The notes: a model not told the origin generated them from the sequence alone. A stretch of DNA of 48,019 nucleotides from an uncultured Candidatus Saccharibacteria bacterium (GCA_964438675.1 CAYTKJ010000001.1:1-48019); one strand, 5' to 3'. Positions 4,694 to 47,350 are shown, counted from the first letter of the stretch. Made by a program: numbers and translations.

Positions 4694-5356
4694 CTACAGG
4701 GAAGGCTCAGCCTCCCCTCTAAACTCGTCACGCATTTCGAGTACATTACGAACCAGATCCACGAATTCCTGCTTTGTCATAAAATACTTTGGAAACTTTT
4801 CCGGGTCGCAAATAGCAAAATCGCGTGTGACGTACTCTGACATACTTGAGTACTTGTAGGTCAGCGCCGTACTGAGCGCTTTGCTACTTTCATACTTTTC
4901 ATTCGCCGGATTCAGGTGGATGTACGAATATAAATACTTAAGATGTCTGTCAGTACTTGTATGTACCGCTTTATACGTACCTTGAAATAAACTTCCGGAT
5001 CGCTCATGAGCAGTGTTGAAGAACATCGTATACGCAGTTCCAATACGATGCATAAACCGTTCTATTCCCTTTTCGCATAGTGGAGTAAGTAATAAATGGA
5101 AGTGGTTGGGCATCAAACAAAACGCACCTATAGCAACAAGCGGCTCTATGCGATACGAAAGCACATCACGAGGAGTCCGTGATGAGTATGAGAGAAACGT
5201 ATCAGCTCGCACGGTCTGTTTGCTATTCATCATCACTAAATACGCCATAAATCTGACATACTCAGAGTGAGACGTATAAATAATTCTTTTATCTACACCG
5301 CGATTATAAATATGATAGTACTCACCTTCAGTAAACTGAACGCGTCTACTCGCCAT
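4694..5356 (-). CDS. IS200-like Y1 (HUH) transposase family protein, RAYT-like
   Basis: 220 aa with YHIYNRG at the N-terminus, the HUH motif MPNHFHLL and the catalytic-Tyr motif YIHLNP. The gene is visibly AT-richer than its neighbours. Confidence 0.8.
   Translation of the reverse strand: MASRRVQFTEGEYYHIYNRGVDKRIIYTSHSEYVRFMAYLVMMNSKQTVRADTFLSYSSRTPRDVLSYRIEPLVAIGAFCLMPNHFHLLLTPLCEKGIERFMHRIGTAYTMFFNTAHERSGSLFQGTYKAVHTSTDRHLKYLYSYIHLNPANEKYESSKALSTALTYKYSSMSEYVTRDFAICDPEKFPKYFMTKQEFVDLVRNVLEMRDEFRGEAEPSL
4698..4718. repeat. 21-nt imperfect palindrome, left copy flanking the Y1 transposase
   Basis: agggaaggctcagcctcccct. Its reverse complement matches 5377-5397 at 19 of 21 positions. It lies within the last codons of the transposase ORF. 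Confidence 0.7.
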
Positions 5357-7180: not shown

Positions 7181-7722
7181 TGGCAACAGCAGTCTTTGGT
7201 GGTGGCTGCTTTTGGTGCACTGAAGCGGTATTTAAAATGATGAAAGGCGTGTCGAGCGTGCTCCCTGGCTACGCAGGAGGCACGGTACAGAATCCAACGT
7301 ACGAACAGGTATCTAGTGGCACCACGGGACATGCAGAGTGCGTCAAAATAGAGTACGACCCGACAATAGTGAAATACCACGATCTCCTTCTTGTTTTTTT
7401 CGGATCACATGACCCAACGACTGTAAACCGGCAAGGTAACGATGTCGGGACCCAGTACCGCTCAGTTATTTTTTTCACGACCCCTGAACAAAAGGCAGAG
7501 TGTGAAAAGTTTATCTCCGAGATTAATGCGTCGAATGAACACGGAGCACCGGTCGCCACAGATGTCGAACCACTGACTGAATTTTATGAGGCTGAGAACT
7601 ACCACCGCGATTACTTTGCTCGTAATCCGCACAACTCCTACTGCTCAATAATTATCAACCCAAAACTCGAAAAGGTCCAAAGAGAGTTCTCCGCGCTACT
7701 GAGCGCTGACCGACAAGGGTAG
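7180..7722 (+). CDS. msrA: Peptide-methionine (S)-S-oxide reductase
   Basis: GGGCFWCTEAVF active-site motif. The start codon overlaps the msrB stop (TAATG). Confidence 0.92.
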   Translation: MATAVFGGGCFWCTEAVFKMMKGVSSVLPGYAGGTVQNPTYEQVSSGTTGHAECVKIEYDPTIVKYHDLLLVFFGSHDPTTVNRQGNDVGTQYRSVIFFTTPEQKAECEKFISEINASNEHGAPVATDVEPLTEFYEAENYHRDYFARNPHNSYCSIIINPKLEKVQREFSALLSADRQG

Positions 7723-9261: not shown

Positions 9262-11032
9262 CTTTCTCTATAATAAACCCGCCGGCCTGGAGTTCCCATA
9301 GATTTTTATACAAGGACCCCTCTGTCTTAAGAAGCTGGTCGTGTGTACCGTCCTCTTTAATTACTCCCTCATCTACCACAACAATTCTGTCCATCATGCG
9401 GATAGTAGAGAGTCGGTGAGCGATTGCTATAACTGTTTTTCCTTTCATCAAGCTATCGAGTGCGTCCTGTATGAGTGCTTCAGAGTGCGAGTCTAGGGAC
9501 GAAGTAGCTTCATCGAGTATCAGAATCGGTGCGTTTTTGAGAATGGCCCGCGCGATAGCGACACGCTGACGCTCACCACCGGAGAGCTTTACCCCGCGCT
9601 CACCAACGTGCGTCTCATACTTTTCAGGCAAGGAGTCAATAAACTCGTGGCAGTGTGCAAGTTTGGACGCAGCTATGACTTCATTATCTGTTGCGTCAGG
9701 GCGCCCATAGCGGATATTCTCTAGGAGTGATCGATGAAAGAGTACAGGATCCTGCGGCACCAGTGAAACACTGCGTCTCAAGCTATCGAGTGTTACCTTT
9801 CGCAAGTCCTGTCCATCTATTGCTATTGAGCCTCCCGTCACATCATAAAGACGCAAAAGCAACCTAATAAACGTAGTCTTTCCTGCACCAGACGGACCAA
9901 CAAGCGCAACCTTTTGAGCAGACGGAATGGTAAGAGACACATCTGAAAGAATCTTTCTGGTTTCGTTGAAGTTAAAATCGACATGGATATACTCCACTAC
10001 TGCGTTTGTTACCGTAAGTGGTTTGGCTGTAGCACTGTCTTGTATGTCATAGGCGAGGTGCATAATTTCTACCATTTCTCTTGAATCTGTGATCGCTTCA
10101 TACAAATGTCTAATCACACGACCTAAATCCCACATCATATCTGAAAGTCGAATGAGGTAAATCTGAATAAGCACAAATGTACCTAGTGAAATAAGTCCTT
10201 GTGCCCAGTATTGAATCGCAAAGTAAAAGACCACAAACGTCACGCCGAGCATAATAAGTGTTTGCAAACCATCAAAGACCAATCCCAAGGTCCAAGACAT
10301 CCACATGGCGTGCGCACGACGAAACGTCACATCAGCAAAGGTCTTGTTCTCCTTTTCTGAAGCCGCAAAAAGTGTTATGGAGCTGTGATTAGTAACAATA
10401 TCTGAAAGCACCCCGGTAGTTTCTGAATCTAATTCTGCACGCCGCACATCGTACGGAAGCTTAAACATTGAGAACGCGTAGTTAAGAGCCAGAAACACGG
10501 CTATCCACACGATCATTATGTATGCAAGCGCAGTATTTTCCTGATAGACCACATATATTGACCCAACCGCACCAATACAGATAGGTATGAGCGTTATGAC
10601 CAACGTGTCTGTAAGACGTTCAAACGCATTAGCAAAACGTCGAACGCGCTGCGAGAGTGAGCCGGCGAAATTGTTTTGAAAAAATGAAAACGAGTGATGT
10701 AGCATGTATGCCAGTGCATCTTGCGCTAAGACCGCCATACTTTTTGACTGAAAGGTGTTTAAGTACCAAAATGCGACACGCCCCGCTGCCCACCCAGCAA
10801 ACGAAACTGCCATAAAGACGTACAAAATGCCTACTAACTCTGCTGGTGATGCGTTCTGTGAGAGTCCATCAAAAAGTTCCTTGAGGTACAGTGGAGCAAA
10901 TACTCCCGCGAGCGCGTTTGCTGAAAACGCAAAAACAACTACCCAGAAGTAGCCATACAACCCACGCGCACCCCGCCAGTGCGCACGTAGCACGTCAAAA
11001 AATGATACCTTCCAGGCCTCTTTCTTTCGCAT
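9251..11032 (-). CDS. ABC exporter, fused permease/ATPase (MsbA/MdlB-like)
   Basis: 593 aa with six N-terminal TM helices, Walker A GPSGAGKTT, signature LSGGERQRVAIAR and Walker B ILILDEATS. Confidence 0.9.
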   Translation of the reverse strand: MRKKEAWKVSFFDVLRAHWRGARGLYGYFWVVVFAFSANALAGVFAPLYLKELFDGLSQNASPAELVGILYVFMAVSFAGWAAGRVAFWYLNTFQSKSMAVLAQDALAYMLHHSFSFFQNNFAGSLSQRVRRFANAFERLTDTLVITLIPICIGAVGSIYVVYQENTALAYIMIVWIAVFLALNYAFSMFKLPYDVRRAELDSETTGVLSDIVTNHSSITLFAASEKENKTFADVTFRRAHAMWMSWTLGLVFDGLQTLIMLGVTFVVFYFAIQYWAQGLISLGTFVLIQIYLIRLSDMMWDLGRVIRHLYEAITDSREMVEIMHLAYDIQDSATAKPLTVTNAVVEYIHVDFNFNETRKILSDVSLTIPSAQKVALVGPSGAGKTTFIRLLLRLYDVTGGSIAIDGQDLRKVTLDSLRRSVSLVPQDPVLFHRSLLENIRYGRPDATDNEVIAASKLAHCHEFIDSLPEKYETHVGERGVKLSGGERQRVAIARAILKNAPILILDEATSSLDSHSEALIQDALDSLMKGKTVIAIAHRLSTIRMMDRIVVVDEGVIKEDGTHDQLLKTEGSLYKNLWELQAGGFIIEKDES

Positions 11033-18650: not shown

Positions 18651-19016
18651 TTATTTCTTCTCGGGAGTTATGGTCCGCAAGAAGTTTGATACGGGGGCGC
18701 CCCCACCCTTTGGAGCAGAGACGCGCATTTTATACGACAGTCGAGCGAGTGGGCGCTCAAGTGCCCGCACTGCCTCAACTGCACTTTGTACACCAAAATG
18801 CGTTGCAGAATGAATGAGCGCCTTCACATAGTTGCGCCAGGAAAGCGGTACACCGCCCAGCACCATCGTGCGCCACAATTCTAGAGCGCGCTCATCGAGT
18901 ACTGATCGCTGTGCATTAAGAAATCGAATTCCGTGCGCTGTTTCGTAACGTCTCAGCGAGAAAAAACCGAGTATCGCAGACAGCGCGATAAGAAGTAAGA
19001 CCGCAGGGGTAAGCAT
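18651..19016 (-). CDS. Hypothetical small membrane protein
   Basis: 121 aa with an N-terminal TM helix. It starts 2 nt after the tsf stop, which suggests translational coupling. I recognise no motif. Confidence 0.5.
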   Translation of the reverse strand: MLTPAVLLLIALSAILGFFSLRRYETAHGIRFLNAQRSVLDERALELWRTMVLGGVPLSWRNYVKALIHSATHFGVQSAVEAVRALERPLARLSYKMRVSAPKGGGAPVSNFLRTITPEKK

Positions 19017-21329: not shown

Positions 21330-21587
21330 TTACTTAGCAGTCTTCTTAGAAGCTCGGACCTTAAAGCGCTCAACACGGCCGGCACGGTCAATAGTGACTT
21401 TCTTGCCTGTATAGAATGGGTGCGACGCTGACGAGATTTCTACGGTCACGCGGTCATATTCTTTTCCATCATCCCACTTTGCTTTTTCAGTCGCATGGAT
21501 GGTTGAGCCTATCAAAAAACGCGTACCCGACTCGACATCGTCGAAAATAACTGGTCTAAAATCTTTCGGATGGATGGCTGCCTTCAT
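21330..21587 (-). CDS. rpmE: 50S ribosomal protein L31 (type B, no CxxC)
   Basis: [15 protein letters not shown] ... HPFYTGK. The start was chosen at MKAAIHP rather than the track start 12 codons upstream. Confidence 0.88.
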
Positions 21588-21624
21588 GTCGTAGGAGTAT
21601 ACCAGAAATGAGCCCAACCGCAAC

Positions 21625-24600
21625 CTATATCTCCTCGAACTTAGGCGCGAGCCTCACGGTAACAACAGCTGAGACTGACTGCCCTGTTTGCATAGACGTA
21701 CAGGAGAGTGTGAAGATAGTCTCCTGCTGTATAGCCCCAGTTACCACTGACCCCCCAGTACCAGTCAGTGGCCACGTTGTCCCAGTAGAGGCCACGATGG
21801 CACACGAGCTGTCCACCACCTCACTTGCAGTCCATGTAATAGTGACGGAGCTCCCGGCACGGATCGTGCTTCTACTTGAAACAATAGTGAGTGTTGAGCT
21901 TTCGTGCGACTCCTCAGTGATATCTTCGCCTGACGAACATGCAGGATCATCGGTATCGATGAGGCTATTCCCGTTATTATCGAGGCCGTCTGCACACTGC
22001 GTTGGCGGCTCAATAGTCACCACAAGCGAGCCCCCACAGTTGTTAGCTTCATTAGTTTCGTCTACAGCTGACGGTATATCTGCACATGCTCGGATTGCAT
22101 GCGTGCCGACAGCTGCAGTCCATGCTGGCGACACTGCTACAAGCGTGCCTCCAGCACCGATAGTTGCCACAAAAGTATCTAGATTCGTGTTCCAGCTCCC
22201 ATTATTCTCTAAGTCTATCTGAAAGCGCACAGGAAAGGTCCCTGTATGCGCAAGTCCATTATTAGTAACCGTTGTGTTAAAGGCCACCGCTTGGTTAGTA
22301 ATTAAAGAGCCCGATGCAATATTTGGGATACTCGCAGTAAAGTCAGGTCCCGAGATAGAAAATGTGTAACTTGCTCCGCAGTTATTCCCCTCATCACTTT
22401 CCGGGTATGCCTCGCTCGGGATATCAGCGCAGGCGCGGATTGCATGCGTACCAGGGACAGCGGTCCACGTTGGCGAAAACGAGATCGATTGAGACCCAGG
22501 AGAAATGGTGTAGAGGTTGCCGGTACGCGTTGCCTTAATTGCACTCGTGCAATTTCTTCCTGTGGCACAATCGGCTGATGGGGTGGTTCGTGCTACAAGC
22601 GACCACGCACCGTCGTACACCTTCCAGCTATAGCGTGTGTAGTTCGTGGTTGGATATGGATTACTGTCTGCCCAAAACTCGGCATTACAGCACTCGCCTG
22701 CTCCGAGTGCGCAGCTTGTAACAACGCGCTGCTTGTCCGCATAATCAACACCGCCACCACCGTCATCCTCGAGCTCACTACCCTGACGGACGAGCGTCCC
22801 GCCAGAACACATAGTCGAGATTTGTTCTTCGACGACACTCTGCGATGTTCCGAGGTCATCAAGTGTTACGTCGTACGTACCATCATTCCATAGATCTATC
22901 TGAAATCTATTTTGAAACACCCACGACACATAATCGGTTCCGAGATTCAAAATGGGTGCTAGAAAACTCAATATGGCTCCTTGCGCTAAAGTGCCTGAAC
23001 TAAGCGTTGGTGTGTCCGCAGAAATATCACGTCCGAAACCTGACACAGTTGTGCCGCATCCTGTGGTGCCAGAGGTACACGATGCTGATCCAGATGAATA
23101 CCAGATGTTTGTTTCAGCGGTCTTTGCCACTACCCCTGTGGGTGACGAGACAGACGCGCATATCGTCCCAATAGGATCGAACTCGCCTGGGTAATAGATA
23201 ACGGTTTGATTCCAGTAACCGAGACCGAGCGTACTGCAATCAAATGCCTGATACGTGCGTTCACTGTATACGAGCGTCGTTGTCCCGGTATACCACTGGT
23301 TAGCAGCGTATGCGCTCGTGCACTGCTCGCTCGCGCATGCACACGTAGGACCAGTGCATGCTGTATAGGGGCAGTCTGTGGTAATTGTAGTATTGCCTGA
23401 AGTAATAGCAACCTGCGCGCTCTTATACCCGCCCGTGGTATATGTCTTTTCTATTGTAGATCCTGTTCCTGAGAGACCGTCACTCCCACTCCAAACGTAG
23501 CTATATGTGCCCGAACCAAACTCAGGCAGTGCGGTCCATGTAATAGGCGTTCCGGTCTGCGGCAGAGCGGTATCAATAGAGCACGAGACCCTAAAAGACT
23601 CGATGGTAGTCGTTGCGGATGCGGTCGCACTGCCACCAGCACCAGTACATGCGACCGAGTACAGAGTGGTCGCCGAGGGATTGACGGTGACTGAGCCAGA
23701 CACAGCATTTCCAGTACTGAAGTTGGTCCCTGTACAACTTGTTGCATTTGCCGATGACCAGGTAAGTAACACAGACTCTCCCGCTGCGACACTGGCCGGG
23801 TTAGAAACAATACCAGCAGTGACTGCCGCGCCATATGACATAGTACGTGCAGTCCACGAAGTACTTACGCATCCAATGGGTTCCCCAGCCACCCACGTAC
23901 ACTCTGTTGTTGGATTTGCCGTAACGGTGCTTTGCGTGTTGGTATAGGCAGAACACGTGTACGTCTCGGTGCCAAAATCCTCGCTTACTACAGCGCGCGT
24001 GGTGCAGCAGCTTGCAGAAAGTCCTGTGCAGTACGATACGCACGTGTCAGTCGATGCTGCATACGTCCCCGCGAGCGTTCCGCCCGAGCACTGCGCTCCA
24101 CTGTAGGTAGTAGACGTGGCTCCGCCCGACGAGACAGAAACTGAAAAACTTTGGCTCGTACTCCCTCCTGCCCCAGAGCACGATACTGTGTAGGTCGTAG
24201 TAGTGGTGGGTGTCACCGTTACGGAACCTGTGGTCGCATTACTTGTACTGAAATTGGTACCAGTACAACTCGTCGCATGAGTAGATGACCAGGTCAGGGT
24301 CGCTGATTGGCCTGAAGTAATCGAGGTGGGAGATCCAGAGAGTGTTGCGGTTGGTACGGCTGGTGCAGTAGCGGTCACTGCTGTCCATGCACCGCAGTTA
24401 TTGTTCTCGTTTGACTCGGTAATAGTCCCACTACTTGCAGACGAGCTTTTGTCTGCACAGAGACGAACGTACCAGGTTGCAGCAGATGGGAAGGTGTACG
24501 AGTATGTTGCCGAGGTACTCCCTCCTGCAGCAAGCGTTGAGGCGCTGTGCGTACCAATGTCTGTTGCGCTAGTTCCGGAAGCATCAGTCGCACGTTGAAA

Positions 24601-24813
24601 TAGATTTGTAAAACTAGTGCCAGTCGATGCTGAGCCAAAATTTGTAATAGTTGCGGAAAGTGTGACCGCAGTACCAACAGTGGCAGCTGTTGGTGTAACG
24701 GCCCCCGCAGAGAGGTCAGGACGCGAAGTTCCGCCACCACGGTGACCCACTGCAAAAACCGACGATGTGCATAATACAAAAAACACCAGGGTTGCGATAA
24801 TTGCTTTATTCAT
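21625..24813 (-). CDS. Large secreted mosaic surface protein (CARDB x3, Ig-like TLTWSS repeats x2, PKD-like, Cys-rich modules, metal-binding CxDGxDNxG motif, C-terminal Ig-like domain)
   Basis: 1062 aa with the signal peptide MNKAIIATLVFFVLCTSSVFA. CARDB signatures include TITESNENNNCG, ESDEGNNCG and DETNEANNCG. Other modules: SATLTWSSTHATSCTG and SVLLTWSSANATSCTG repeats, YSYVWSGSDGLSG, and QCADGLDNNGNSLIDTDDPAC. Thr/Ser/Gly-rich. Confidence 0.85.
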   Translation of the reverse strand: MNKAIIATLVFFVLCTSSVFAVGHRGGGTSRPDLSAGAVTPTAATVGTAVTLSATITNFGSASTGTSFTNLFQRATDASGTSATDIGTHSASTLAAGGSTSATYSYTFPSAATWYVRLCADKSSSASSGTITESNENNNCGAWTAVTATAPAVPTATLSGSPTSITSGQSATLTWSSTHATSCTGTNFSTSNATTGSVTVTPTTTTTYTVSCSGAGGSTSQSFSVSVSSGGATSTTYSGAQCSGGTLAGTYAASTDTCVSYCTGLSASCCTTRAVVSEDFGTETYTCSAYTNTQSTVTANPTTECTWVAGEPIGCVSTSWTARTMSYGAAVTAGIVSNPASVAAGESVLLTWSSANATSCTGTNFSTGNAVSGSVTVNPSATTLYSVACTGAGGSATASATTTIESFRVSCSIDTALPQTGTPITWTALPEFGSGTYSYVWSGSDGLSGTGSTIEKTYTTGGYKSAQVAITSGNTTITTDCPYTACTGPTCACASEQCTSAYAANQWYTGTTTLVYSERTYQAFDCSTLGLGYWNQTVIYYPGEFDPIGTICASVSSPTGVVAKTAETNIWYSSGSASCTSGTTGCGTTVSGFGRDISADTPTLSSGTLAQGAILSFLAPILNLGTDYVSWVFQNRFQIDLWNDGTYDVTLDDLGTSQSVVEEQISTMCSGGTLVRQGSELEDDGGGGVDYADKQRVVTSCALGAGECCNAEFWADSNPYPTTNYTRYSWKVYDGAWSLVARTTPSADCATGRNCTSAIKATRTGNLYTISPGSQSISFSPTWTAVPGTHAIRACADIPSEAYPESDEGNNCGASYTFSISGPDFTASIPNIASGSLITNQAVAFNTTVTNNGLAHTGTFPVRFQIDLENNGSWNTNLDTFVATIGAGGTLVAVSPAWTAAVGTHAIRACADIPSAVDETNEANNCGGSLVVTIEPPTQCADGLDNNGNSLIDTDDPACSSGEDITEESHESSTLTIVSSRSTIRAGSSVTITWTASEVVDSSCAIVASTGTTWPLTGTGGSVVTGAIQQETIFTLSCTSMQTGQSVSAVVTVRLAPKFEEI

Positions 24814-25723
24814 TGGACCAGGTAAGTAGCCTCATAAAACCATTAAATTCACCCAACGCACGCACCCTACCAGTCGTAATGGTAAATACAGACACAGTTG
24901 TAGTTGCGTCAGTATGCGTGGTGCCTAATAGATAGGCCCCATCAGGGGAAAACGTCATAGTCTCCGGAATAAAAGTTTTTTCAAGTATCAGTGGTACAAA
25001 ATAACCATCTTTCTCTTCAAAAACTTGAAGCGATCGATCTGCGGGAGCTACCCATGCGAGGCGCGTACCGTCCTGGGAAACTGCAAACGGCGTTGAGAGT
25101 GGTACTGGCACAGGACTTGCTACCACAATACTCGGCGGTGCATCGCTGTACGATAAAAGTGCGATCCCTCGTGATGTGAGTGCAAAGGTACGCTGACTCG
25201 GTGATGGGTGTGGTTCGTACCCGCGACCAACGGTGAGTGTATCGCCCTGCTCGACTGCGCGTACCACTACCCACGCTTCTGGCGAGATTTCTTCTACCGC
25301 ATCGTCACGCGTAGCAAATGCGATACTCGTGCCCTGAGGAGACCAGCGCGGGTCAGACACCTCACCTACCGCAACCACACGTGTCTCTACACCATCCGTA
25401 TTACCTATAAGCAGTTCCGGGGGCGCGCCCTTCGTACGTGTGACAAAAGCACTGTTTCCCCCTTGAGGCGCAGGCACGACAGCAATAAGCGAGCGCAGAC
25501 CGTCTGGCTGAAACACCAGATACTCGAGCTCGTGCATGGCCTGCAGCGAAAAAGATACCGACCGCATCGACCCATCTGTACCTATCAGTGTTGCGTATAC
25601 TGTTCCGTTTAGTCGATAGGCACTGAGTGCTGAAACGACACCGATCGCTGCGACCACAGCTACAAGCACCAGATGTCCTCTATGATCCCGACACCACGCT
25701 AGCAGTTCGCGCACGCGTGACAT
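24806..25723 (-). CDS. Membrane-anchored PD40/TolB-like beta-propeller repeat protein (paralogue 2)
   Basis: 305 aa with the TM helix LVLVAVVAAIGVVSAL, then PRWSPQGTSIAF, VSQDGTRLAWV and FSPDGAYLL repeat signatures. It overlaps the downstream gene by 8 nt. Confidence 0.7.
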   Translation of the reverse strand: MSRVRELLAWCRDHRGHLVLVAVVAAIGVVSALSAYRLNGTVYATLIGTDGSMRSVSFSLQAMHELEYLVFQPDGLRSLIAVVPAPQGGNSAFVTRTKGAPPELLIGNTDGVETRVVAVGEVSDPRWSPQGTSIAFATRDDAVEEISPEAWVVVRAVEQGDTLTVGRGYEPHPSPSQRTFALTSRGIALLSYSDAPPSIVVASPVPVPLSTPFAVSQDGTRLAWVAPADRSLQVFEEKDGYFVPLILEKTFIPETMTFSPDGAYLLGTTHTDATTTVSVFTITTGRVRALGEFNGFMRLLTWSNE

Positions 25724-25726
25724 GTG

Positions 25727-27136
25727 TTAAATCTCCTGGAACGTCGGCGCAATTTTACAATCGACAGATTTCGTCACCGTCTTACCATCAAGACTGCTGC
25801 AGGAGAGTTTGTACGTGGAAGTCTGGGAAAGCTCGGGTGTCACTACTTCCTTGAGCGAAATAATGCCGTTCTGCGCGGTGTATCCGCGCGACACTCCTGG
25901 GCCGGTCAGTGAGCACGATGATACGTTAAGTGCAGAAAGTGTAAGTGTGCACGACTGATTCTTTTTTATAAGCGGCGGCGCAGCAGAAAATGTGAGTGTC
26001 GCTGGTTCAAGAAGCTCAAGGTTGTCCGTGAGAGATGAGCATCCTAGGTCCTCTGGAAAATCAACATTTCCGTCACCGTTATTGTCTATACCATCGGAAC
26101 ACTGCGCAGTCGCAGTGGACGTCGTCGCCTCGCTGTCGTCGCCTGAACCACTACAACCTTGGTCGGCAAGGTCCACGTTACCGTCCCCATCATTGTCTAT
26201 TCCGTCAGAGCACTGCGAACCTCCACCTCCACCACCACCTCCAGAAACAATAGAGACACTGTTCTCACACGCTACCGTTTTGCTCTCTGACGCGCCCTGT
26301 GCAGGCACAACACTAACCACAAGCGATGCGTTTTTTGATCCGGTAGTCTGATACTGCTTAAAAACTTGTGTGAGCGTACCACTGAGTCCATCTGTGCCAC
26401 TCCACGCGTAAGTGTAGGCCCCAGCAGGGCCCGTAACTGTTGAAGACCAGAGCACATCCTCACCTATCGCTGCCTGTGATGGATGTGCGCGACACGAAAC
26501 TTGAAGCGAGCCATCTGCTACTGTCACCTGCGCAGCAGCTGTTGCCTGCCCACCGAGTCCGGTGCAAGTGACTGTGTAATTTGTCGTCTGTTGCGGTGAG
26601 ACGCTTACTGAGCCAGAGGTTGCGCCACCAGTACTAAACCCACTTCCAGTACAGCTCGTTGCACCAGTCGACGCCCACGTAAGGAGCGACTGCTCACCAC
26701 GAATAACGGCGCTTGGGTTTGCTACAAGAGACGCGGTGACTACTACTGCAGGACAAACATTTCCTGAGCGGTACAACACTTCAACTGGTTGACCAGCACT
26801 AGCGAGTGCAGGACGAACTGGTGGCTTAGCAACATCACCGGTTGGGTTCGTGATACCGAGACAGACAGTCTCGTACGGATCATACTCCCATGGACGATTG
26901 GTGACTGATTCATTCCAGTACAAAACACCATTTTCCTGTGCCCATATTGCACAGTCGATAGGCTGGTACAGTCGCTCATTAAGCACGCCACTATCTGTCG
27001 TTCCGGAATACCACACATCTTCACGCACGACCTGGGTGCAGGATGCCTGAGTTTCCTCCGGAGCAGGCATGAGAGCAAACCCAAATGCAACGAGCCCAAG
27101 TAATCCTACCGCCGCAATATTTTTTATGTACATCAT
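25727..27136 (-). CDS. Secreted mosaic surface protein (Cys/Trp module, Ig-like TWAS repeat, PKD-like, two CxDGxDNxGDG motifs, C-terminal Ig-like domain)
   Basis: 469 aa with an N-terminal signal/anchor helix. Modules: SLLTWASTGATSCTG, YTYAWSGTDGLSG, a Gly8 linker, and QCSDGIDNDGDGNVD and QCSDGIDNNGDGNVD. It ends in APTFQEI. Confidence 0.8.
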   Translation of the reverse strand: MMYIKNIAAVGLLGLVAFGFALMPAPEETQASCTQVVREDVWYSGTTDSGVLNERLYQPIDCAIWAQENGVLYWNESVTNRPWEYDPYETVCLGITNPTGDVAKPPVRPALASAGQPVEVLYRSGNVCPAVVVTASLVANPSAVIRGEQSLLTWASTGATSCTGSGFSTGGATSGSVSVSPQQTTNYTVTCTGLGGQATAAAQVTVADGSLQVSCRAHPSQAAIGEDVLWSSTVTGPAGAYTYAWSGTDGLSGTLTQVFKQYQTTGSKNASLVVSVVPAQGASESKTVACENSVSIVSGGGGGGGGSQCSDGIDNDGDGNVDLADQGCSGSGDDSEATTSTATAQCSDGIDNNGDGNVDFPEDLGCSSLTDNLELLEPATLTFSAAPPLIKKNQSCTLTLSALNVSSCSLTGPGVSRGYTAQNGIISLKEVVTPELSQTSTYKLSCSSLDGKTVTKSVDCKIAPTFQEI

Positions 27137-27858
27137 AGTGACTGAGGGATGACTGTTGCAAAACCAGGTACGTGTGTGACCTCCCTAACTTCTTCAGAGT
27201 CAAAGGAAATCATCGAAACTGCTGTTTCAGTCAAACCAATTTTAGCTACCACGAGCGCGGTACCATCTAAAGTGAACTGCATCGAGCTCACTGGTATCCC
27301 CGAGCGCACAAAGATTGGTAGGTACACTCCGCGATCGTTTTTTTCGAAAACCTGTATGGAGTTGTCTGCAGGACTTACCCACGCGACTCTTTGCGCGTCT
27401 CCCCAGACTGAAAGCGGCGTAAGTGGAGATGTGGGTACCGCAGATGCTACGAGGAGCGTCACACGCTCTGAGTCACCTGGCGTTTTGCGGACAACACCTG
27501 CCAGGTCGACCGTAATCACGGTATCATCGGACATGGTAAAAGTGCGGAGTGAACGCGTATTCATACCATCTACTGAAACATCGGGCAGTGCAGTTAAAGT
27601 GCCTGTCTCTAGGGACAGCGACTGAACCGAACGCACACCGTCTATCGAACGAACGAGGAGCGATGCGCTCCCGCCCATGCCCTGCCCCTGCCACAGATCT
27701 AGCGCGGCGACCGCAACAATGATCAATACGATTGCATACAGTAAGAAATTGCCGTTGTGAGTAGGGACTGTCCGTGCTGGAATGGTTTGTGAATTAGTCA
27801 AATCTGCCATACTACATGCATAGTAGCACTTACCTTGACGGCCAATCCTGTTTTCCAC
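27133..27858 (-). CDS. Membrane-anchored PD40-like protein (paralogue 1)
   Basis: 241 aa with the TM helix FLLYAIVLIIVAVAAL. RVAWVSPADNSIQVFEKND aligns with RLAWVAPADRSLQVFEEKD of 24806-25723. The start may be MADLTNS at 27810. There is an ATGA overlap with the next gene. Confidence 0.65.
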   Translation of the reverse strand: MENRIGRQGKCYYACSMADLTNSQTIPARTVPTHNGNFLLYAIVLIIVAVAALDLWQGQGMGGSASLLVRSIDGVRSVQSLSLETGTLTALPDVSVDGMNTRSLRTFTMSDDTVITVDLAGVVRKTPGDSERVTLLVASAVPTSPLTPLSVWGDAQRVAWVSPADNSIQVFEKNDRGVYLPIFVRSGIPVSSMQFTLDGTALVVAKIGLTETAVSMISFDSEEVREVTHVPGFATVIPQSL

Positions 27859-29210
27859 TACAACCCCTTGAGGAAGTCTATGTTTTCCTGAAACGCCTCG
27901 GCTTTTTTTATCACCGAGTCACCGTAGAAATAATTAGTTGGTTTTCGAGTATCGCACGCGCGTCCAGAATAATAGCGGCAGGCGGCATTGCGCTCTGCAC
28001 TGTATGTGCCGCCTGCCGCACCTAGATCCTGTATATAGAGGGCAGTTGCCATGATGGCGTGCTTGGCATCCCACGGATTTGCCTGTACTACCCCGAGTGT
28101 AGACTCAAGCCGTTTTTCATAAAGCATCCAAGTCGAAGGGATAAATTGAGACGGTCCCATAGCACCTCCGTACCCACGATTTGGGGTAAATACTGCAGCC
28201 AACGGGCACGATACTGGTGTCGCGCCCCAGACCAGACCGAGTGCAGACGTAATTTGTTCAAACGGCACCGTGTCACGCGGTGACTTCATTACCTTTTGAA
28301 AAACTGAGCCAGTATTTTTACCTGCACCATCACCGCTGTCGAGGTCGGTCACGTAGCAAGACCCAACATTCTTACCCAGATCAGACTCTTGCGAGAGTAT
28401 GGCGAGGATGAGCGCCGCACGAACGCCAGTCTTTTGTGCCGCGTACATGGCGTGCTCCAATGCGGTACCGAATGAAATGCCTACCGCATCACGAAGTGGG
28501 AAAAGCGCAGCACGCAACTGCTCAGCCTTACGCTGACGCTCTGCAAGCACTCCCGAGTATGCCTTTTCCTGATCTTTAGTAATATTGAGCAATTTTTTCT
28601 TCTCTGCTTCATTTACCGCAATTTGTTTTTTAGTTCGCTCGACATCAAACCGTGCATCGAGTTCAAGGTTCCGCTTTTCTGCGAGGGCCTTTTTTTCCAC
28701 TTCGGTGGCATCTTTCACATCCCGAATCTCAGCAAACAACTTCTGTAAATCGCGTCGAACGACGGCGATAGCCTCGAGGTCACCGTAGAAAGAGGTGAAG
28801 GTGTCTGCGGATAGTATGAGTTCCACCAGTGCACGCTCGTCCGCAACGTGCTGTAGCCGTAGCATTTCCGCAAGCGACATGCGACCCCGCACCAGACGCT
28901 CCTCGTATTCAGAAATGAGAGCTGACTTTGCTTGTATATCGTCCGACAATTTAGTTATGGTCACATTTCTCTGACGAATGTTTGCCTCTGCCTTTTTAAT
29001 CAGTGCATTGAGTTCTGTCACATCACCCTGTAGAGTACTTTTCTTCGCCCGCGTTTCATCAAGCACTTTCTGCCACTCAACAATTTCAGCTTGTATTTTG
29101 TTATACTCCTCCTGAAGGCGTACCTTGTCTGCATCAGTAAGGAACTGCGCATGCACACTCGGTGCAAGAAAATATCCAAAAAGGACGAGGCAAACAAAAA
29201 AGACCCGCAT
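27858..29210 (-). CDS. Secreted coiled-coil protein with a C-terminal lytic transglycosylase (SLT_2/MltB-like) domain
   Basis: 450 aa with a signal peptide ending SVHA, about 220 aa of heptad-like charged helix, then ILSQESDLG and GAMGPSQFIPSTW, typical of lytic murein transglycosylases. Confidence 0.8.
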   Translation of the reverse strand: MRVFFVCLVLFGYFLAPSVHAQFLTDADKVRLQEEYNKIQAEIVEWQKVLDETRAKKSTLQGDVTELNALIKKAEANIRQRNVTITKLSDDIQAKSALISEYEERLVRGRMSLAEMLRLQHVADERALVELILSADTFTSFYGDLEAIAVVRRDLQKLFAEIRDVKDATEVEKKALAEKRNLELDARFDVERTKKQIAVNEAEKKKLLNITKDQEKAYSGVLAERQRKAEQLRAALFPLRDAVGISFGTALEHAMYAAQKTGVRAALILAILSQESDLGKNVGSCYVTDLDSGDGAGKNTGSVFQKVMKSPRDTVPFEQITSALGLVWGATPVSCPLAAVFTPNRGYGGAMGPSQFIPSTWMLYEKRLESTLGVVQANPWDAKHAIMATALYIQDLGAAGGTYSAERNAACRYYSGRACDTRKPTNYFYGDSVIKKAEAFQENIDFLKGL

Positions 29211-29230: not shown

Positions 29231-29884
29231 TTACTCCGCAGGGGGCGCCTCTGCCTCCTCTTCCTTCTTTCCGCGCTCTACAGAGTCGCCGATAGCAGTC
29301 ATGTCGACTGCAACTGGTGACTCTTCTATCACCTCCTCCTTGGCAAGAGCGGCAATCGCGACCACCTCTTCAGTATCACCGACAAGTGTCACTCCAGCTG
29401 GAAGCGTAATGTCTTGCGCCAATACTTGATCGCCAATAGCTACAAGCTTTGAAATATCAACAGTGAGTTCGTGCGGGAGACTCATCGGGTCGGCCTCGAC
29501 CTCGATCTCGTGCATGGTCTTAATAAGGTTTGCACCTCCCTTCACTGCCTCAGAATCTCCAACGAATTCAAGTGGGATCATAACCTGCACTTTCTGACCT
29601 TTCACAATGGCGTAGAAATCAGCGTGACGAGGAGTGTTCGTAATTGGGTCACGGTCAACCTCATGGATAAGGGTCGGGATCGGTGCGTCGTCAATAATCA
29701 CCGTAACAATCGTTGATTCTCCGGCAGACTTGAGTACCTTTCCAAAATCCCGAGCGTTTACTGTTATAGAGAGAGCCTCCTGCTTAGGGCCATACACGAC
29801 CGCGGGCATAGCACCACCCGCACGGATAGTGTCGAGGGCATTACCCTTTTGGGTTCGCTTGGTAGCAGTAAGCTCAATCGTCAT
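29231..29884 (-). CDS. rplY: 50S ribosomal protein L25 / general stress protein Ctc
   Basis: 217 aa with RTQKGNALDTIRAGGAMPAVVYG, HADFY and an acidic C-terminal tail. Confidence 0.88.
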   Translation of the reverse strand: MTIELTATKRTQKGNALDTIRAGGAMPAVVYGPKQEALSITVNARDFGKVLKSAGESTIVTVIIDDAPIPTLIHEVDRDPITNTPRHADFYAIVKGQKVQVMIPLEFVGDSEAVKGGANLIKTMHEIEVEADPMSLPHELTVDISKLVAIGDQVLAQDITLPAGVTLVGDTEEVVAIAALAKEEVIEESPVAVDMTAIGDSVERGKKEEEAEAPPAE

Positions 29885-42210: not shown

Positions 42211-42666
42211 TTAGTACGTCACGCGGATAGCTCGTTCCAGACGAAGCTCATTGGTAAGGTCACACGTGTTGTGACCAAAAGACTCGATCACGGTACTTTT
42301 TGGTTGACTACGGGTCACAATAATAGTTGTGCATTGCGTTCGCGAACCTCCACCTGTCGTCACATCGAATGTGGTGATGTAGTCGTCGTTCACACTCTCG
42401 CGTGACAAGGTGGATGTTGCGGTTCCGCAGTCGAGATCGGTAATAACAGAAGAGGTTGCGAATGCATCAAGTTTGGTGTCAGCCCACAGTGCGCACTCGA
42501 TGCCCGTGTCAGCTGCAAAAAACGCAAACTGCGACTCTCGCCCAGAGGATGAAAGATTCACATCCTTTATAGCAAGGTTATAAATTTCATAGCCGATCGC
42601 TAACAAAATGCCCGAGATGAGCACAGACATGAGCATAGTGAAAGCGCGAGGTTGTCTCATAGCCAA
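42211..42666 (-). CDS. PilX-like minor pilin-like protein
   Basis: 151 aa. The N-terminus MAMRQPRAFTMLMSVLISGILLAIG is pilin-like but lacks Glu5. Last gene of the pilin string. Confidence 0.5.
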   Translation of the reverse strand: MAMRQPRAFTMLMSVLISGILLAIGYEIYNLAIKDVNLSSSGRESQFAFFAADTGIECALWADTKLDAFATSSVITDLDCGTATSTLSRESVNDDYITTFDVTTGGGSRTQCTTIIVTRSQPKSTVIESFGHNTCDLTNELRLERAIRVTY

Positions 42667-43157
42667 TTAAAGAGGCGCTCTTGAATAGTAAACACGCGTG
42701 AGACTCCAGCGGATTTCCATGAAATGGTAACCGATACAATAATCTGATCTGGATTCGTCGGTGAGGCTGTGAGCAACACGTGTCGCGTAAACGGTGAGTC
42801 CGTCCCTGAGTCATGGTTGTACAATGCTCCATTTGCGGAAACTTTAAGCACGGGACACCCTCCCTGCGGGCACGCCGCGTAGGTAAAGTTTGGATAGTCG
42901 ACAGTGCACGGCGTGCCAGTACATGCAGCACCTATGCCAGCGAGCCAGTCTGAACCAGAGAGATAATTTTCATCGCGCACTGCGCGCACAAACTCAACAC
43001 CCTCCTGAGCCAAATAGAACGCGGTCACCTGATCACGAGCATAATACGAGCTCCGCAATGACTGCTGAGCAATAGAGAATGGTCCAAGTAGTGCCATGAG
43101 TAACACAGACACAGCAACGAGAGTCTCTAGTAGGGTAAATGCGGGAAGTGTCTTCAT
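42657..43157 (-). CDS. Prepilin-type N-terminal cleavage/methylation domain protein (minor pilin)
   Basis: MKTLPA/FTLLETLVAVSVLL, with Ala at position -1. Confidence 0.7.
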   Translation of the reverse strand: MKTLPAFTLLETLVAVSVLLMALLGPFSIAQQSLRSSYYARDQVTAFYLAQEGVEFVRAVRDENYLSGSDWLAGIGAACTGTPCTVDYPNFTYAACPQGGCPVLKVSANGALYNHDSGTDSPFTRHVLLTASPTNPDQIIVSVTISWKSAGVSRVFTIQERLFNWL

Positions 43158-43741
43158 ATATCTAAGAGGCGCTGCGTTACGGATGATTGCACAGTAAATT
43201 GTGTCGGCCCCCCTTGTACCTGAGCAGTACCTTTTACAATCATGAGCACTCGCGGTTGCACGGTGTCACCAGCAGACAGCGTCTCTGCACCAGTCACATA
43301 AAATCGAAAACTAGAAATAATCACTTCTGGGGCAGTGAGAGAAACCCATGAGCCATTCGTACCTGATTCAAGTGAGCGCTCAAGCTGTGCACCGTTGAGT
43401 CGATACACTGTCTGGTCATCGATGTCGTCTGGGTCACCACCTGTCGGCTCAAACGCGAGAAGCAATCCTCCCGTAAGCGGACAGTCGTTCGTCTCTGCAA
43501 GGATGCTTGGCGATGGTGCAATAGAGGTCTCACCACAATAGTAGGTTGAACCGACACGGATCGAACGTGACATCTGCTCCATTGCCGCGTTTAGATTGTT
43601 CATCACCGAATTAATACCTTGTGCTCGCTTGTTTACCTCAACCATCGTAAGCAGTGCGCCGACACCAACCAACATAACAATCGAAAAGATTGATACTGCG
43701 ACCATAAGCTCGATCAGGGTAAATGCTCGCGTGGTTTTCAT
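43154..43741 (-). CDS. Prepilin-type minor pilin (PilW-like size)
   Basis: MKTTRA/FTLIELMVAVSIFSIVM. Confidence 0.75.
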   Translation of the reverse strand: MKTTRAFTLIELMVAVSIFSIVMLVGVGALLTMVEVNKRAQGINSVMNNLNAAMEQMSRSIRVGSTYYCGETSIAPSPSILAETNDCPLTGGLLLAFEPTGGDPDDIDDQTVYRLNGAQLERSLESGTNGSWVSLTAPEVIISSFRFYVTGAETLSAGDTVQPRVLMIVKGTAQVQGGPTQFTVQSSVTQRLLDI

Positions 43742-44301
43742 GGGCGTTTTACAGAGATCTGACCTGTTGACTGAACAGTGATAGTGCGAGTTTCATCGCT
43801 ACGCGACTGAAGTACAATTTTTGCGCTCGAGTATGGAGTCGGCCCATCACCAGTAATGGTCGCGTCGGGGTTGGGTCGTAAAAAACCAACATCGATATGT
43901 GTCAGACTTGCGGCATTATCTGAGCAATCCTCGACACCGTCAGAGCGCACCCCACAGTAGTGTTGTATGGTGTGCCCACGGCCTAATGTGATCTGTTGCA
44001 CGACCTGATCAACACCTGGATCGTACCGTTTGTTACGATCTTCGTCTAAGTCCGCAAAAATCACGTAGGCAGTAGTACCTTCAAAATGTACACCGTATCC
44101 TACCCGAAACTCTCCTGAGTAATTGCGAGTTGAAAGTCCGTATACTTGCGCCTGGCGGATAGAGAGCGCTACATCATACGCCGCATTACCAAGAAGTACT
44201 GAGGAATTAAACTGCGCGTTGTTTGCAAGCACGACGCCAGTAATGACGACAAAAATCCCCGTAACGACTAGTAGTTCGATGAGTGAGAAACCGCGGTGCA
44301 T
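43738..44301 (-). CDS. Prepilin-type minor pilin (FimT/GspH-like)
   Basis: MHRG/FSLIELLVVTGIFVVITG. Confidence 0.75.
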   Translation of the reverse strand: MHRGFSLIELLVVTGIFVVITGVVLANNAQFNSSVLLGNAAYDVALSIRQAQVYGLSTRNYSGEFRVGYGVHFEGTTAYVIFADLDEDRNKRYDPGVDQVVQQITLGRGHTIQHYCGVRSDGVEDCSDNAASLTHIDVGFLRPNPDATITGDGPTPYSSAKIVLQSRSDETRTITVQSTGQISVKRP

Positions 44302-45095
44302 TAGAAAGGTAGTGAGAGTCCGAGAGACGCAAAGCCGAGGTTATACCACCATACGCTAAGCGCCCCGAGCGCAAGAAATGGCGCAAACGGAACCTCTGTC
44401 TTCAGTGTAACGCGCATACCGTATGTTGAGCCGAACAGGTGTTTACAAATGCGTGCGCACAGCATGAGCGCGATGCCGACTAGTGCACCTATCCACACTG
44501 CGAACACTGATGCCACTACTCCATGTTCTACTCCAAGAAAGAGTCCTAAAGCGCCTGCCACGTACGCATCACCAATCCCCATTCCTTTACCACGCGTAAC
44601 CGCAGTGAGTAGCGCAAAAAAACCAGCGCACACAAAAACTCCCCACAGTGCACTCATCGACGGAGTAAGAAGGAAACTAAGCGCAGCGAACCCATACATA
44701 CCGTAGACAAATGGGAGCGGTACGAGCGTGTGTCGAAGATCATAGACTACTAGGCCTAAGAAAGAGACCCAAAAACCCGCAGTGGCTACAAATAGCACGC
44801 CTGAGAAGGCGTACCCCACCATGTAGTACGACATAAGAAACAGTAGCCCTGTCGCAAGTTCAACGAGCGGATACTGAGTAAGTAACCGACTACCACACTC
44901 CCGACACCGACCCCTCAGTGCAAGATATGAAAAAAGTGGCACTAGGTCTCTCGCCCGCAGCACTGTTCCGCATGCCATACACTGGGACCGTTCTCCGCCG
45001 CGCTCGCGATACCCAAAACGCAAAATCACTACGTTCAAAAAACTGCCAACACACACACCAAAGATAAAAAGGAGTGCGCCAAACACGAGCTCCAT
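44301..45095 (-). CDS. pilD: Prepilin peptidase (A24 family)
   Basis: 264 aa and polytopic, with N-terminal CMACG...CRECG zinc-ribbon-like pairs and the GMGIGDAYV active-site-type motif. Confidence 0.85.
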   Translation of the reverse strand: MELVFGALLFIFGVCVGSFLNVVILRFGYRERGGERSQCMACGTVLRARDLVPLFSYLALRGRCRECGSRLLTQYPLVELATGLLFLMSYYMVGYAFSGVLFVATAGFWVSFLGLVVYDLRHTLVPLPFVYGMYGFAALSFLLTPSMSALWGVFVCAGFFALLTAVTRGKGMGIGDAYVAGALGLFLGVEHGVVASVFAVWIGALVGIALMLCARICKHLFGSTYGMRVTLKTEVPFAPFLALGALSVWWYNLGFASLGLSLPF

Positions 45096-45096
45096 A

Positions 45097-45570
45097 CTAC
45101 GGCACTATGTCGTAGCAAGCGCGTCTAGATATACTGCCGCCACCACAATCTGATGGGTTTGAGAGTGTACCATCACCACCATTAATACTGTCTGATACCG
45201 AATCTCTGTCGGACTTAAGTGCTTTGTTTTTTGGATCCTCGAGATTTGTTGCTAGGTGGTAACTGGTACCCCCTCCGGTCACATCGTAAAAGTATGGTTC
45301 ACGCGTTGAGGGGTCGGTCGGCAACTGCGGTATCTGCGCGCCAGTCACCAGGTCGTCTAACGTGTCCGGATATGTCGTGTTTTTATCAAAGTAAAACTGA
45401 AGCGCAGTCTGAAGCTGTTTCAGGTCCGCAAGACGCTTTGAGTCACGACTACCTACACGAGCGGTATTTACCGTTACCACGATTGCTGCAGCTAAAATAC
45501 CAATGATCGCAACAACGACGAGTATCTCGATTAAGGTAAAACCGCGAGTGACGCGCATAGTATGTATCAT
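45097..45570 (-). CDS. Type IV pilin, second paralogue
   Basis: MIHTMRVTRG/FTLIEILVVVAIIGILAA. The C-terminus resembles the upstream pilin (YHLATNLED ... CYDIVP). The longer track ORF running to 45786 is rejected. Confidence 0.8.
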   Translation of the reverse strand: MIHTMRVTRGFTLIEILVVVAIIGILAAAIVVTVNTARVGSRDSKRLADLKQLQTALQFYFDKNTTYPDTLDDLVTGAQIPQLPTDPSTREPYFYDVTGGGTSYHLATNLEDPKNKALKSDRDSVSDSINGGDGTLSNPSDCGGGSISRRACYDIVP

Positions 45571-45586
45571 CCCCTTAGCATACGCG

Positions 45587-45619
45587 AAAAATCCCCATCC
45601 CGCGTTCGGGATGGGGATT
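45587..45619 (-). terminator. Strong rho-independent terminator after the first pilin gene
   Basis: Minus strand AATCCCCATCCCG-AACG-CGGGATGGGGATT (13-bp perfect stem) followed by TTTC, 15 nt after the pilin stop. Confidence 0.8.
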
Positions 45620-45634
45620 AGGTTCGCAGAAAGA

Positions 45635-46075
45635 CTACGGACCAACGTCGTAGCAGTAACGATTTGCCTCGTCACTACAGCCGTCAGCGTCAGGACCATC
45701 AACCACGGTACCATCAGTGTCAAGATCGGAGCGAAGTGCTTGACTTGCTGAATCTTCGAGGTTAGCTCCGAGGTGGTAGCTGGCACCTGCGTTGAGCCGC
45801 TCGTACGGATACGCTACCTGTCCAACTGGATCAGTTGGGATCGTCGCAATATACGTTGTTGCAAGTTCTGATAGTGCAGATGGATACGTCGACGATGCAT
45901 CATAGTAGAGCTGCATCGCAAGCTGAATCTGCTTGATATCTGCAACACGGCGGGCATCACGGCTCTTCTGACGAGCGGTGTTGAGCGATGCAAGCACAAT
46001 TGATGACAAGATACCGATGATGGCGATAACCACCAAGAGCTCAATAAGGGTAAAGCCTTTAAAACTTTTCTTCAT
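45635..46075 (-). CDS. pilA: Type IV major pilin candidate
   Basis: MKKSFKG/FTLIELLVVIAIIGILSS. 146 aa, with a C-terminal Cys pair. It is followed by a strong terminator, as is typical for major pilin genes. Confidence 0.85.
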   Translation of the reverse strand: MKKSFKGFTLIELLVVIAIIGILSSIVLASLNTARQKSRDARRVADIKQIQLAMQLYYDASSTYPSALSELATTYIATIPTDPVGQVAYPYERLNAGASYHLGANLEDSASQALRSDLDTDGTVVDGPDADGCSDEANRYCYDVGP

Positions 46076-46138
46076 GGATAATTGTTACGTTGTAAAATGT
46101 ACTAAAAGACCAGCAAAGGTCACATAGTTATTGTAGCC

Positions 46139-47347: not shown

Positions 47348-47350
47348 AGG

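Follow-up and report, generated by a model that had tools for sequence, protein, structure and literature searches.

What are two consecutive pairs of genes for predicted membrane and exported proteins doing inside a run of ribosomal and translation-factor genes? The question is raised by a stretch of DNA assigned to an uncultured Candidatus Saccharibacteria bacterium (GCA_964438675.1 CAYTKJ010000001.1:1-48019), 48,019 nucleotides (nt) long and referred to here as the window. In each pair, a gene for a membrane-anchored, propeller-like protein (anchors A and B) is followed by a gene for a secreted multidomain protein (mosaics A and B), and a lytic transglycosylase gene lies directly upstream. 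An earlier note on this DNA had read the paired genes as a two-component surface module, possibly acting with a wall-opening enzyme and serving host attachment. To our knowledge, almost nothing has been established about surface building and host contact in the uncultured, ultra-small, Paceibacteria-type cells that belong to the Candidate Phyla Radiation (CPR). Current understanding comes mainly from the type IV pili of cultivated Saccharibacteria. We propose, from sequence comparisons and structure models, that anchor and mosaic form an apparently undescribed two-gene surface module that behaves as one evolutionary unit.

Two anchor–mosaic pairs with tight junctions

A six-frame list of open reading frames (ORFs) contains the five co-directional minus-strand ORFs that had been described. 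Four of these make up the two pairs:

27133..27810, minus strand: ORF2, anchor A, 225 amino acids (aa) from the ATG at 27810 (the GTG-extended reading to 27858 gives 241 aa)
25727..27136, minus strand: ORF3, mosaic A, 469 aa
24806..25723, minus strand: ORF4, anchor B, 305 aa
21625..24813, minus strand: ORF5, mosaic B, 1062 aa

Reading the junctions directly, we find that ORF2 and ORF3 overlap by 4 nt (ATGA), with the start of mosaic A lying on the stop of anchor A. ORF3 and ORF4 are separated by a 3-nt gap, and ORF4 and ORF5 overlap by 8 nt (ATGAATAA), a stretch that includes the anchor B stop. The tight packing noted earlier thus holds at these three junctions. It does not hold between the transglycosylase gene (ORF1) and ORF2, where the supposed 1-nt overlap requires a GTG start. 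The public protein collection lacks a 241-aa ORF2 with the GTG start but contains the 225-aa product that begins at ATG 27810 (P0036), whose N terminus aligns with those of homologues. ORF2 therefore starts at ATG 27810, leaving a gap of 47 nt after ORF1 (25 to 60 nt in relatives) and no overlap. Promoter and terminator scans between 18 and 32 kilobases (kb) returned counts at chance level, and operon boundaries can therefore not be drawn from them.

The anchors are modeled as TolB-like propellers on a membrane helix

Both anchors have one transmembrane segment, predicted from hydropathy to be uncleaved and to leave the N terminus inside, and they contain 0 and 1 cysteines. In hidden Markov model searches, ORF4 scores 24.0 bits against the Pfam PD40 family (PF07676), above the gathering threshold of 20.9. 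ORF2 has no match in Pfam or NCBIfam, and its PD40 membership consequently rests on its paralogy with ORF4 and on its AF2 model. That paralogy, recognized in the earlier note, is far above chance: in a BLASTP alignment (E 6e-16), the C-terminal 104 aa of the two proteins are 35% identical, with the C-terminal blades of ORF4 being the part that corresponds. The description of the two as transmembrane-anchored, PD40-like proteins is therefore upheld, directly for ORF4 and through paralogy and model for ORF2.

The AF2 model of ORF4, built with 23 homologues, has a mean predicted local distance difference test score (pLDDT) of 92.9 and a predicted template modeling score (pTM) of 0.86. It consists of a helix at residues 15 to 34 followed by about 24 strands, equivalent to six blades. 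Its best 19 Foldseek matches in the PDB are all TolB (E 3e-11, TM-score 0.65). The ORF2 model (pLDDT 85.4, pTM 0.73) has a helix at residues 19 to 41 and 16 strands, or about four blades, and matches TolB and other propellers loosely (TM-score ~0.4). On these models, the most fitting description of ORF2 is that of a shortened, propeller-like paralogue.

We considered whether the anchors are ordinary TolB homologues found beside unrelated genes, an outcome that the earlier note had named as refuting its proposal, and rejected this identity. The TolB equivalog model TIGR02800 scores 25.2 bits against a cutoff of 343, the transmembrane anchor is uncleaved, and there are no tol or pal neighbors. 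The anchor family is small, with about 30 clusters for ORF4, all of ~300 aa, and nine for ORF2.

The mosaics share modules in different orders

Mosaic A begins with a Sec-type signal peptide, followed by a WYSGT Cys module, an Ig-like module (LLTWAS..ATSC), a PKD-like module (YTYAWSGTDGLSG), the acidic double-disulfide repeat in two copies, and, at the C terminus, an Ig-like module with a short tail. In mosaic B, the signal peptide leads into CARDB domains, with three NNCG ends among them, then into two Ig-like modules of the TLTWSS type, one PKD-like and one WYTGT Cys module, and one acidic disulfide repeat; a C-terminal Ig-like module with a tail again closes the protein. Three blocks, differently ordered in the two proteins, are common to both (E 1e-34, 2e-14, and 5e-14). 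A pattern search recovered all five motif types that the mosaics had been said to share, and their paralogy stands.

Curated families cover parts of these chains. ORF5 matches CARDB (PF07705) at 79.3 bits against a gathering threshold of 22.7, over two scored stretches; ORF3 has no CARDB match in Pfam. The acidic double-disulfide repeat (NF033662) occurs in two copies in ORF3, at 44.4 bits against a cutoff of 41, and in one copy in ORF5, at 22.6 bits and hence below that cutoff. ORF3 scores 15.5 bits with PKD_4, short of the gathering threshold of 27, and 'PKD-like' accordingly denotes resemblance only. The mosaics are rich in cysteine (16 residues in ORF3 and 39 in ORF5) and are probably calcium-binding. 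Sequence searches of the PDB with ORF1, ORF3, and ORF5 returned no match. Elsewhere, the acidic repeat (CxDGxDNDGDGxxD...C) forms huge tandem arrays in proteins among P0164-P0312, with as many as 44 scored stretches (P0189 is an example) and lengths of up to 3,425 aa.

Hydropathy gives ORF1, ORF3, and ORF5 an N-terminal hydrophobic segment only, and no C-terminal anchor or LPXTG motif is present in any of the five ORFs. A sortase or exosortase sorting signal (LPXTG, PEP-CTERM) in the mosaics was considered and rejected, as they have no C-terminal transmembrane segment and no match to an NCBIfam CTERM model.

A constant C-terminal module closes every mosaic

The two mosaics end alike:

25730..26110, minus strand: module at the C terminus of mosaic A (residues 343-469), in which an acidic disulfide repeat and an Ig-like domain precede the end ...CKIAPTFQEI-COOH
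21628..22005, minus strand: C-terminal module of mosaic B, aa 937-1062, which aligns with the ORF3 module and has the end ...VRLAPKFEEI-COOH

This module (acidic disulfide repeat, Ig-like domain, and short end) closes every mosaic in every locus that we collected. The consensus of the tail is P-x-F-x-E-[IF], with an A-type form, ...CK[VI]AP[TS]F[EQ]E[FI], and a B-type form, ...V[RK][LIV][AT]P.F[EQ][EN]I. A weak alignment of mosaic B's end with an internal Ig-like module (E 3e-5) places the last nine residues beyond the final strand, where they could therefore be a free peptide. Neither Pfam nor NCBIfam has a curated model for an Ig-like module with a P-x-F-x-E-[IF] end.

An exhaustive profile search with the C-terminal module matched 4,517 representatives (E no higher than 0.001). 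The acidic repeat accounts for most of these matches; it swamps the search and leaves the total uninformative about the spread of the module. Among the 150 best representatives, 23 carry the whole module at the extreme C terminus. Some of these 23 differ markedly in their N-terminal parts (P0290, P0293, P0294, P0299, and P0306). No fusion of a propeller with the tail module occurs among the 313 proteins examined.

Anchor and mosaic persist together across genomic contexts

If anchor and mosaic form a unit, they should be found together in related genomes. We made a systematic pass over all collected loci, using profiles of both anchors and BLAST for the mosaics. It identified 30 anchor genes at 19 non-redundant loci of relatives, and each of the 30 has a mosaic gene immediately after it, which answers the question of conserved adjacency positively; note that the main clade is collinear over all 20 kb, such that adjacency there carries little weight. 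The gene order in this clade, wherever the contig reaches far enough, is rplY-SLT-anchor A-mosaic A-anchor B-mosaic B-rpmE-prfA-rpsB-tsf, where SLT is the transglycosylase gene. Sizes range from 208 to 242 aa for anchor A, 597 to 1101 for mosaic A (469 in the window), 285 to 308 for anchor B, and 776 to 1504 for mosaic B. Relatives are labeled Candidatus Paceibacterota in their records, or 'uncultured Candidatus Saccharibacteria' in one groundwater assembly set. Two of the relatives are on contigs of 757 to 766 kb. This points to a small-genome lineage within the CPR, in a Paceibacteria/Parcubacteria-type clade.

More informative are the loci that break this collinearity. On a 109-kb contig (L020/L019), uvrC and ddl flank a single pair, and the vicinity contains no SLT gene. 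The anchor of this pair matches ORF2 at 40% identity over the full length (E 4e-42), and its 683-aa mosaic has N- and C-terminal modules in common with ORF3 (E 5e-47). Locus L023 has two small-anchor pairs in tandem behind the transglycosylase gene, whose product is 77% identical to that of the window (SLT-small anchor-mosaic-small anchor-mosaic), and L018 has the order mosaic-small anchor-mosaic. At L028, an upstream ORF with PD40 motifs overlaps the start of the gene for P0294, a tail-bearing secreted protein whose N-terminal part is unrelated to the window mosaics; the C terminus of the upstream ORF reads ...RLLQWFSE, and that of ORF4 reads ...RLLTWSNE. Together, these loci indicate that the anchor-then-mosaic unit moves, multiplies, and persists as a pair. 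Duplication of whole pairs, as first suggested for the window, is borne out, both partners having been duplicated together.

Mosaics are hypervariable between near-identical strains

The paired genes change faster than their surroundings. Anchors are 34 to 65% identical where the flanking genes are 63 to 92% identical. In the same comparisons, the SLT protein is 71 to 83% identical and evolves like the housekeeping genes. Between two strains with 96.5 to 98.9% identity in housekeeping DNA, the anchors remain 96 to 97% identical, and the mosaics are reduced to blocks at 81 to 94% with gaps, plus stretches that cannot be aligned. The mosaics are the hypervariable component between near-identical strains, which fits exposed proteins that face a ligand or an enemy.

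A side observation concerns base composition: over the mosaic genes (window positions 23000-26000), guanine-cytosine (GC) content is 0.52 to 0.54, and GC skew is +0.015 to +0.026 as compared with -0.04 to -0.16 elsewhere. The shift probably stems from the Ser/Thr/Gly-rich composition of the mosaics (33 to 41%).

How the pairs may work

In the mechanism that we favor, the first gene of each pair encodes a type-II (N-in) membrane protein that presents a TolB-like PD40 propeller on the outside. The second, translationally coupled to the first, encodes a Sec-exported, Cys-rich chain of Ig-like, CARDB, and PKD-like modules without an anchor of its own. The propeller would hold its cognate mosaic at the surface through the common C-terminal Ig-like module and the P-x-F-x-E-[IF] end, and the variable N-terminal modules would face outward and bind an external ligand, whether host cell, particle, or polymer. 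Such units would have been inserted between the housekeeping SLT gene and rpmE, and duplicated there as whole pairs. We give an even chance to the central step, in which the propeller physically binds and displays the mosaic. That the ligand is a host cell, and the pairs thus serve host attachment, is a tentative suggestion that we think rather less probable.

Several observations weigh against this mechanism. Anchor A, with about four modeled blades, may not close into a propeller at all. Most of the synteny comes from one collinear clade, with only three or four independent contexts, and one of these is weak: the upstream ORF at L028 scores 18.9 bits with PD40 (cutoff 20.9) and 13.9 bits with the anchor B profile. 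The terminal residue of the tail is not fixed, as one mosaic ends in ...APRYEER and another in ...TPRSGEF, and the conserved end could be merely structural. The tail may also be conserved for reasons of translation. Its final F(E/Q)E(I/F) residues are encoded through CAGGAG or GAGGAG (25730-25750 and 21628-21648, and in all related loci), 6 to 10 nt before the next start or candidate start (the ATG of ORF4; an alternative TTG of rpmE), and these codons could double as the ribosome-binding site of the next gene.

A more general version of the proposed mechanism would make the P-x-F-x-E-[IF]-COOH module an address tag of a CPR-wide display system, docking diverse cargo on cognate PD40 propellers. 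It would amount to a non-covalent counterpart of sortase anchoring, in which duplication of pairs yields new specificities. We regard this version as unlikely.

Alternative explanations

An explanation that shares most of the same evidence is that the propellers are folding or export helpers, protective partners, or sensors, and that the mosaics are released or attached to the wall by other means. Adjacency, coupling, and co-duplication fit this explanation equally; mosaics with 16 and 39 cysteines and calcium-binding-type repeats may need assisted folding, and propellers are common as scaffolds. However, Pfam and NCBIfam scans detected no catalytic or chaperone motif, and one-to-one duplication of helper and substrate is less expected of a general chaperone. 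Against a sensor role, the short cytoplasmic N terminus has no signaling domain. Overall, we consider a helper or sensor role improbable.

An S-layer-type envelope layer strikes us as similarly improbable. Here, the pairs would build a membrane stalk and canopy, as do SlaB and SlaA of Sulfolobus, and there would be no ligand-specific adhesin. Placement in a ribosomal and translation-factor run with no detectable terminators suggests the high, constitutive expression that such a layer might have; a large Ig-like-rich protein with a small membrane partner is the right combination, and S-layer proteins, too, are typically hypervariable between strains. Nevertheless, the length and modules of the mosaics vary widely among close relatives (469 to 1101 aa for A and 776 to 1504 aa for B), which is unusual for a lattice protein, and sister lineages lack the pairs.

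Slightly less credible again is the possibility that anchor and mosaic are independent surface proteins, merely co-transcribed and kept adjacent by a low rate of genome rearrangement. The 20-kb neighborhood is indeed collinear throughout the main clade. Yet adjacency outlasts relocation (L020), change in copy number (L023 and L018), and extreme divergence (L028), and both partners have been duplicated together.

The transglycosylase is a neighbor, not a component

It is tempting to add the adjoining lytic transglycosylase to the module. The genes concerned are as follows:

29231..29884, minus strand: rplY (L25/TL5), upstream backbone gene, identified with Pfam
27858..29210, minus strand: ORF1, 450 aa, secreted coiled-coil protein with an SLT_2 domain, neighbor outside the module
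21330..21623, minus strand: rpmE (L31), downstream backbone gene, identified with Pfam

The signal peptide, coiled coil, and SLT_2-type domain first noticed in ORF1 are all supported. SLT_2 scores 30.1 bits against a gathering threshold of 24.3, residues ~28-234 match only coiled-coil families in Pfam and NCBIfam (such as SMC and EnvC), and the translation contains LSQESDLG, with the catalytic E-S motif, and GAMGPSQFIPSTW, with the AMGxxQFxPS(S/T)W motif. ORF1 falls short of the MltB equivalog models, with 26.6 bits against 281, which makes it a member of family 3 and not an MltB orthologue.

Its distribution is what separates the enzyme from the pairs. Homologues of ORF1 fall into more than 4,482 clusters (E below 1e-5, full-length, 56 to 86% identity), labeled, where labels are given, as Patescibacteria, Parcubacteria, Kaiserbacteria, or Paceibacterota. 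The backbone rplY-SLT-rpmE-prfA-rpsB-tsf occurs without pairs at L024, L025, and L026, in Kaiserbacteria-type genomes. The pair-free SLT loci include a Candidatus Kaiserbacteria genome (58% identity) and a 709-kb contig (62%). Every examined locus whose SLT protein has 71% or more identity to that of the window contains pairs; the two examined at 58% and 62% contain none. A backbone that has the SLT gene and lacks the pairs marks the pairs as a sub-clade insertion and the enzyme as lying outside the module. On the simplest reading of these gene orders, one sub-clade received the pairs by insertion into the conserved backbone, and their distribution, as far as seen, is narrow. ORF1 itself is, judging from its homologues, a widespread housekeeping protein of Patescibacteria, and not a module component.

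That all five genes nonetheless form one system, in which the coiled-coil transglycosylase opens the wall for assembly of the apparatus or for access to the host, is thus largely refuted by distribution and in our view very improbable: the genes are co-directional, only 47 nt follow the SLT gene, no terminator-like site above chance lies between the genes, and SLT directly precedes the first anchor in every clade locus that reaches that far upstream, but SLT clusters vastly outnumber the ~30 of the anchors, SLT occurs without pairs and, at L020, a pair without SLT nearby, and the enzyme changes at a housekeeping rate. The functional link to a wall-opening enzyme suggested as possible in the earlier note is therefore not supported.

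One of the pair-free loci (L026, on a 709-kb contig) has an unrelated 127-aa SpoIIAA-like gene at 9390-9773, between the SLT gene and rpmE. The SLT-rpmE junction may be a recurrent insertion point.

Surroundings of the block and other features of the window

Pfam confirms the translation genes reported on either side of the block (L25, L31, RF-1, S2, and EF-Ts). The likely start of rpmE is the ATG at 21587, about 35 nt past the ORF5 stop; rpmE products of relatives are 84 to 87 aa. Rfam and tRNA scans found two tRNAs only, both distant from the block. We considered a phage or other mobile-element origin of the block and rejected it: there are no flanking mobile genes, and the position is the same throughout the clade. 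Scans of viral contigs with the anchor and tail profiles gave a single, unrelated acidic-repeat match.

Directly after tsf lies a 121-aa ORF (18651-19016, minus strand) that has a hydrophobic segment at its N terminus and matches no family. It is kept at 119 to 152 aa across related loci, including the Kaiserbacteria loci. In a Hainich groundwater relative (L006/L007), a small GIY-YIG (T5orf172-like) gene is found downstream of tsf at 7440-7706; the window lacks it.

A type IV pilus gene cluster is located about 17 kb from the module (42211-47971, minus strand). It includes a prepilin peptidase (44301-45095; A24_N_bact, Peptidase_A24) and, at 46139-47347, a PilC/T2SSF platform protein. The cluster's four small, overlapping ORFs at 42211-44301 resemble pilin or minor-pilin genes. 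The window also contains an IS200-like Y1 transposase gene (4694-5356, minus strand; Y1_Tnp, 31.9 bits), which is unusual for a genome this small, and two adjacent, overlapping ORFs for HhH-GPD base-excision glycosylases (2877-4269, minus strand; 281 and 216 aa).

Significance and comparison with known systems

A repeatable two-gene unit that joins a modeled propeller to a hypervariable exported partner offers a concrete hypothesis about the surface of these cells. If the C-terminal module is a docking tag, it would represent a new mode of surface-protein retention in bacteria without an outer membrane, and the surface proteome of these lineages would become predictable from sequence. Our analysis also corrects a tempting inference, as the adjoining lytic transglycosylase proves to be a housekeeping gene of the conserved rplY-rpmE backbone.

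The pairing had been put forward as undescribed, and we likewise found no published description of it in the searchable literature. Neither the literature nor curated families contain a TolB-like propeller as membrane partner of a secreted Ig-like/CARDB protein, or a common C-terminal module ending in P-x-F-x-E-[IF]. The domain types, by contrast, are familiar. ORF5 falls within CARDB and ORF3 within NF033662, as do other adhesin-like proteins, although these families describe modules and not a system.

For ORF1 alone, the nearest parallels, by analogy only, are the hydrolases of growth or division CwlO, PcsB, and EnvC, which resemble it in having a signal peptide, a coiled coil of ~200 aa, and a C-terminal peptidoglycan-cleaving domain. 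ORF1 has a weak EnvC match over its coiled coil, and JGI calls its homologues 'peptidoglycan hydrolase CwlO-like'. Its domain, however, is of the SLT_2/MltB type and not NlpC/P60, CHAP, or LytM, and neither FtsE nor FtsX is among the scanned window ORFs.

The anchors are most like TolB (PDB 2W8B, 2HQS, and 1C5K), which has a six-bladed PD40 propeller and an envelope location. In TolB, Pal and short peptides (the colicin TolB box, for instance) dock on the propeller, and by analogy the anchors might dock the mosaics in the same manner. Anchor B differs in lacking the N-terminal alpha/beta domain and in having a transmembrane anchor in place of a cleaved signal peptide. The genomic setting differs as well: there is no tolQ, tolR, tolA, or pal nearby, and the neighbors in every locus are mosaics, SLT, and ribosomal genes. 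Moreover, the window organism belongs to a monoderm-type CPR lineage, and the neighbor of each anchor is a secreted Ig-like/CARDB protein.

Two surface-layer systems resemble the proposed arrangement. A Methanosarcina surface-layer protein (PDB 1L0Q; Foldseek rank 43) likewise combines a propeller with PKD/Ig-like modules at the cell surface. It does so in one polypeptide, with a tandem YVTN propeller and PKD, whereas the parts are split between two proteins here and the propeller is of another subtype. In Sulfolobales, SlaA and SlaB are encoded by adjacent genes, and a small membrane protein holds a large, Ig-like-rich secreted protein that has no anchor. SlaB is an archaeal stalk of coiled coil and beta-sandwich domains, anchored at its C terminus. 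The similarity is a functional analogy only, with no relationship in sequence or fold, a propeller here in place of a stalk, and no lattice indicated here. A small membrane protein that holds a large secreted one is thus a known principle, of which SlaB and SlaA are an example.

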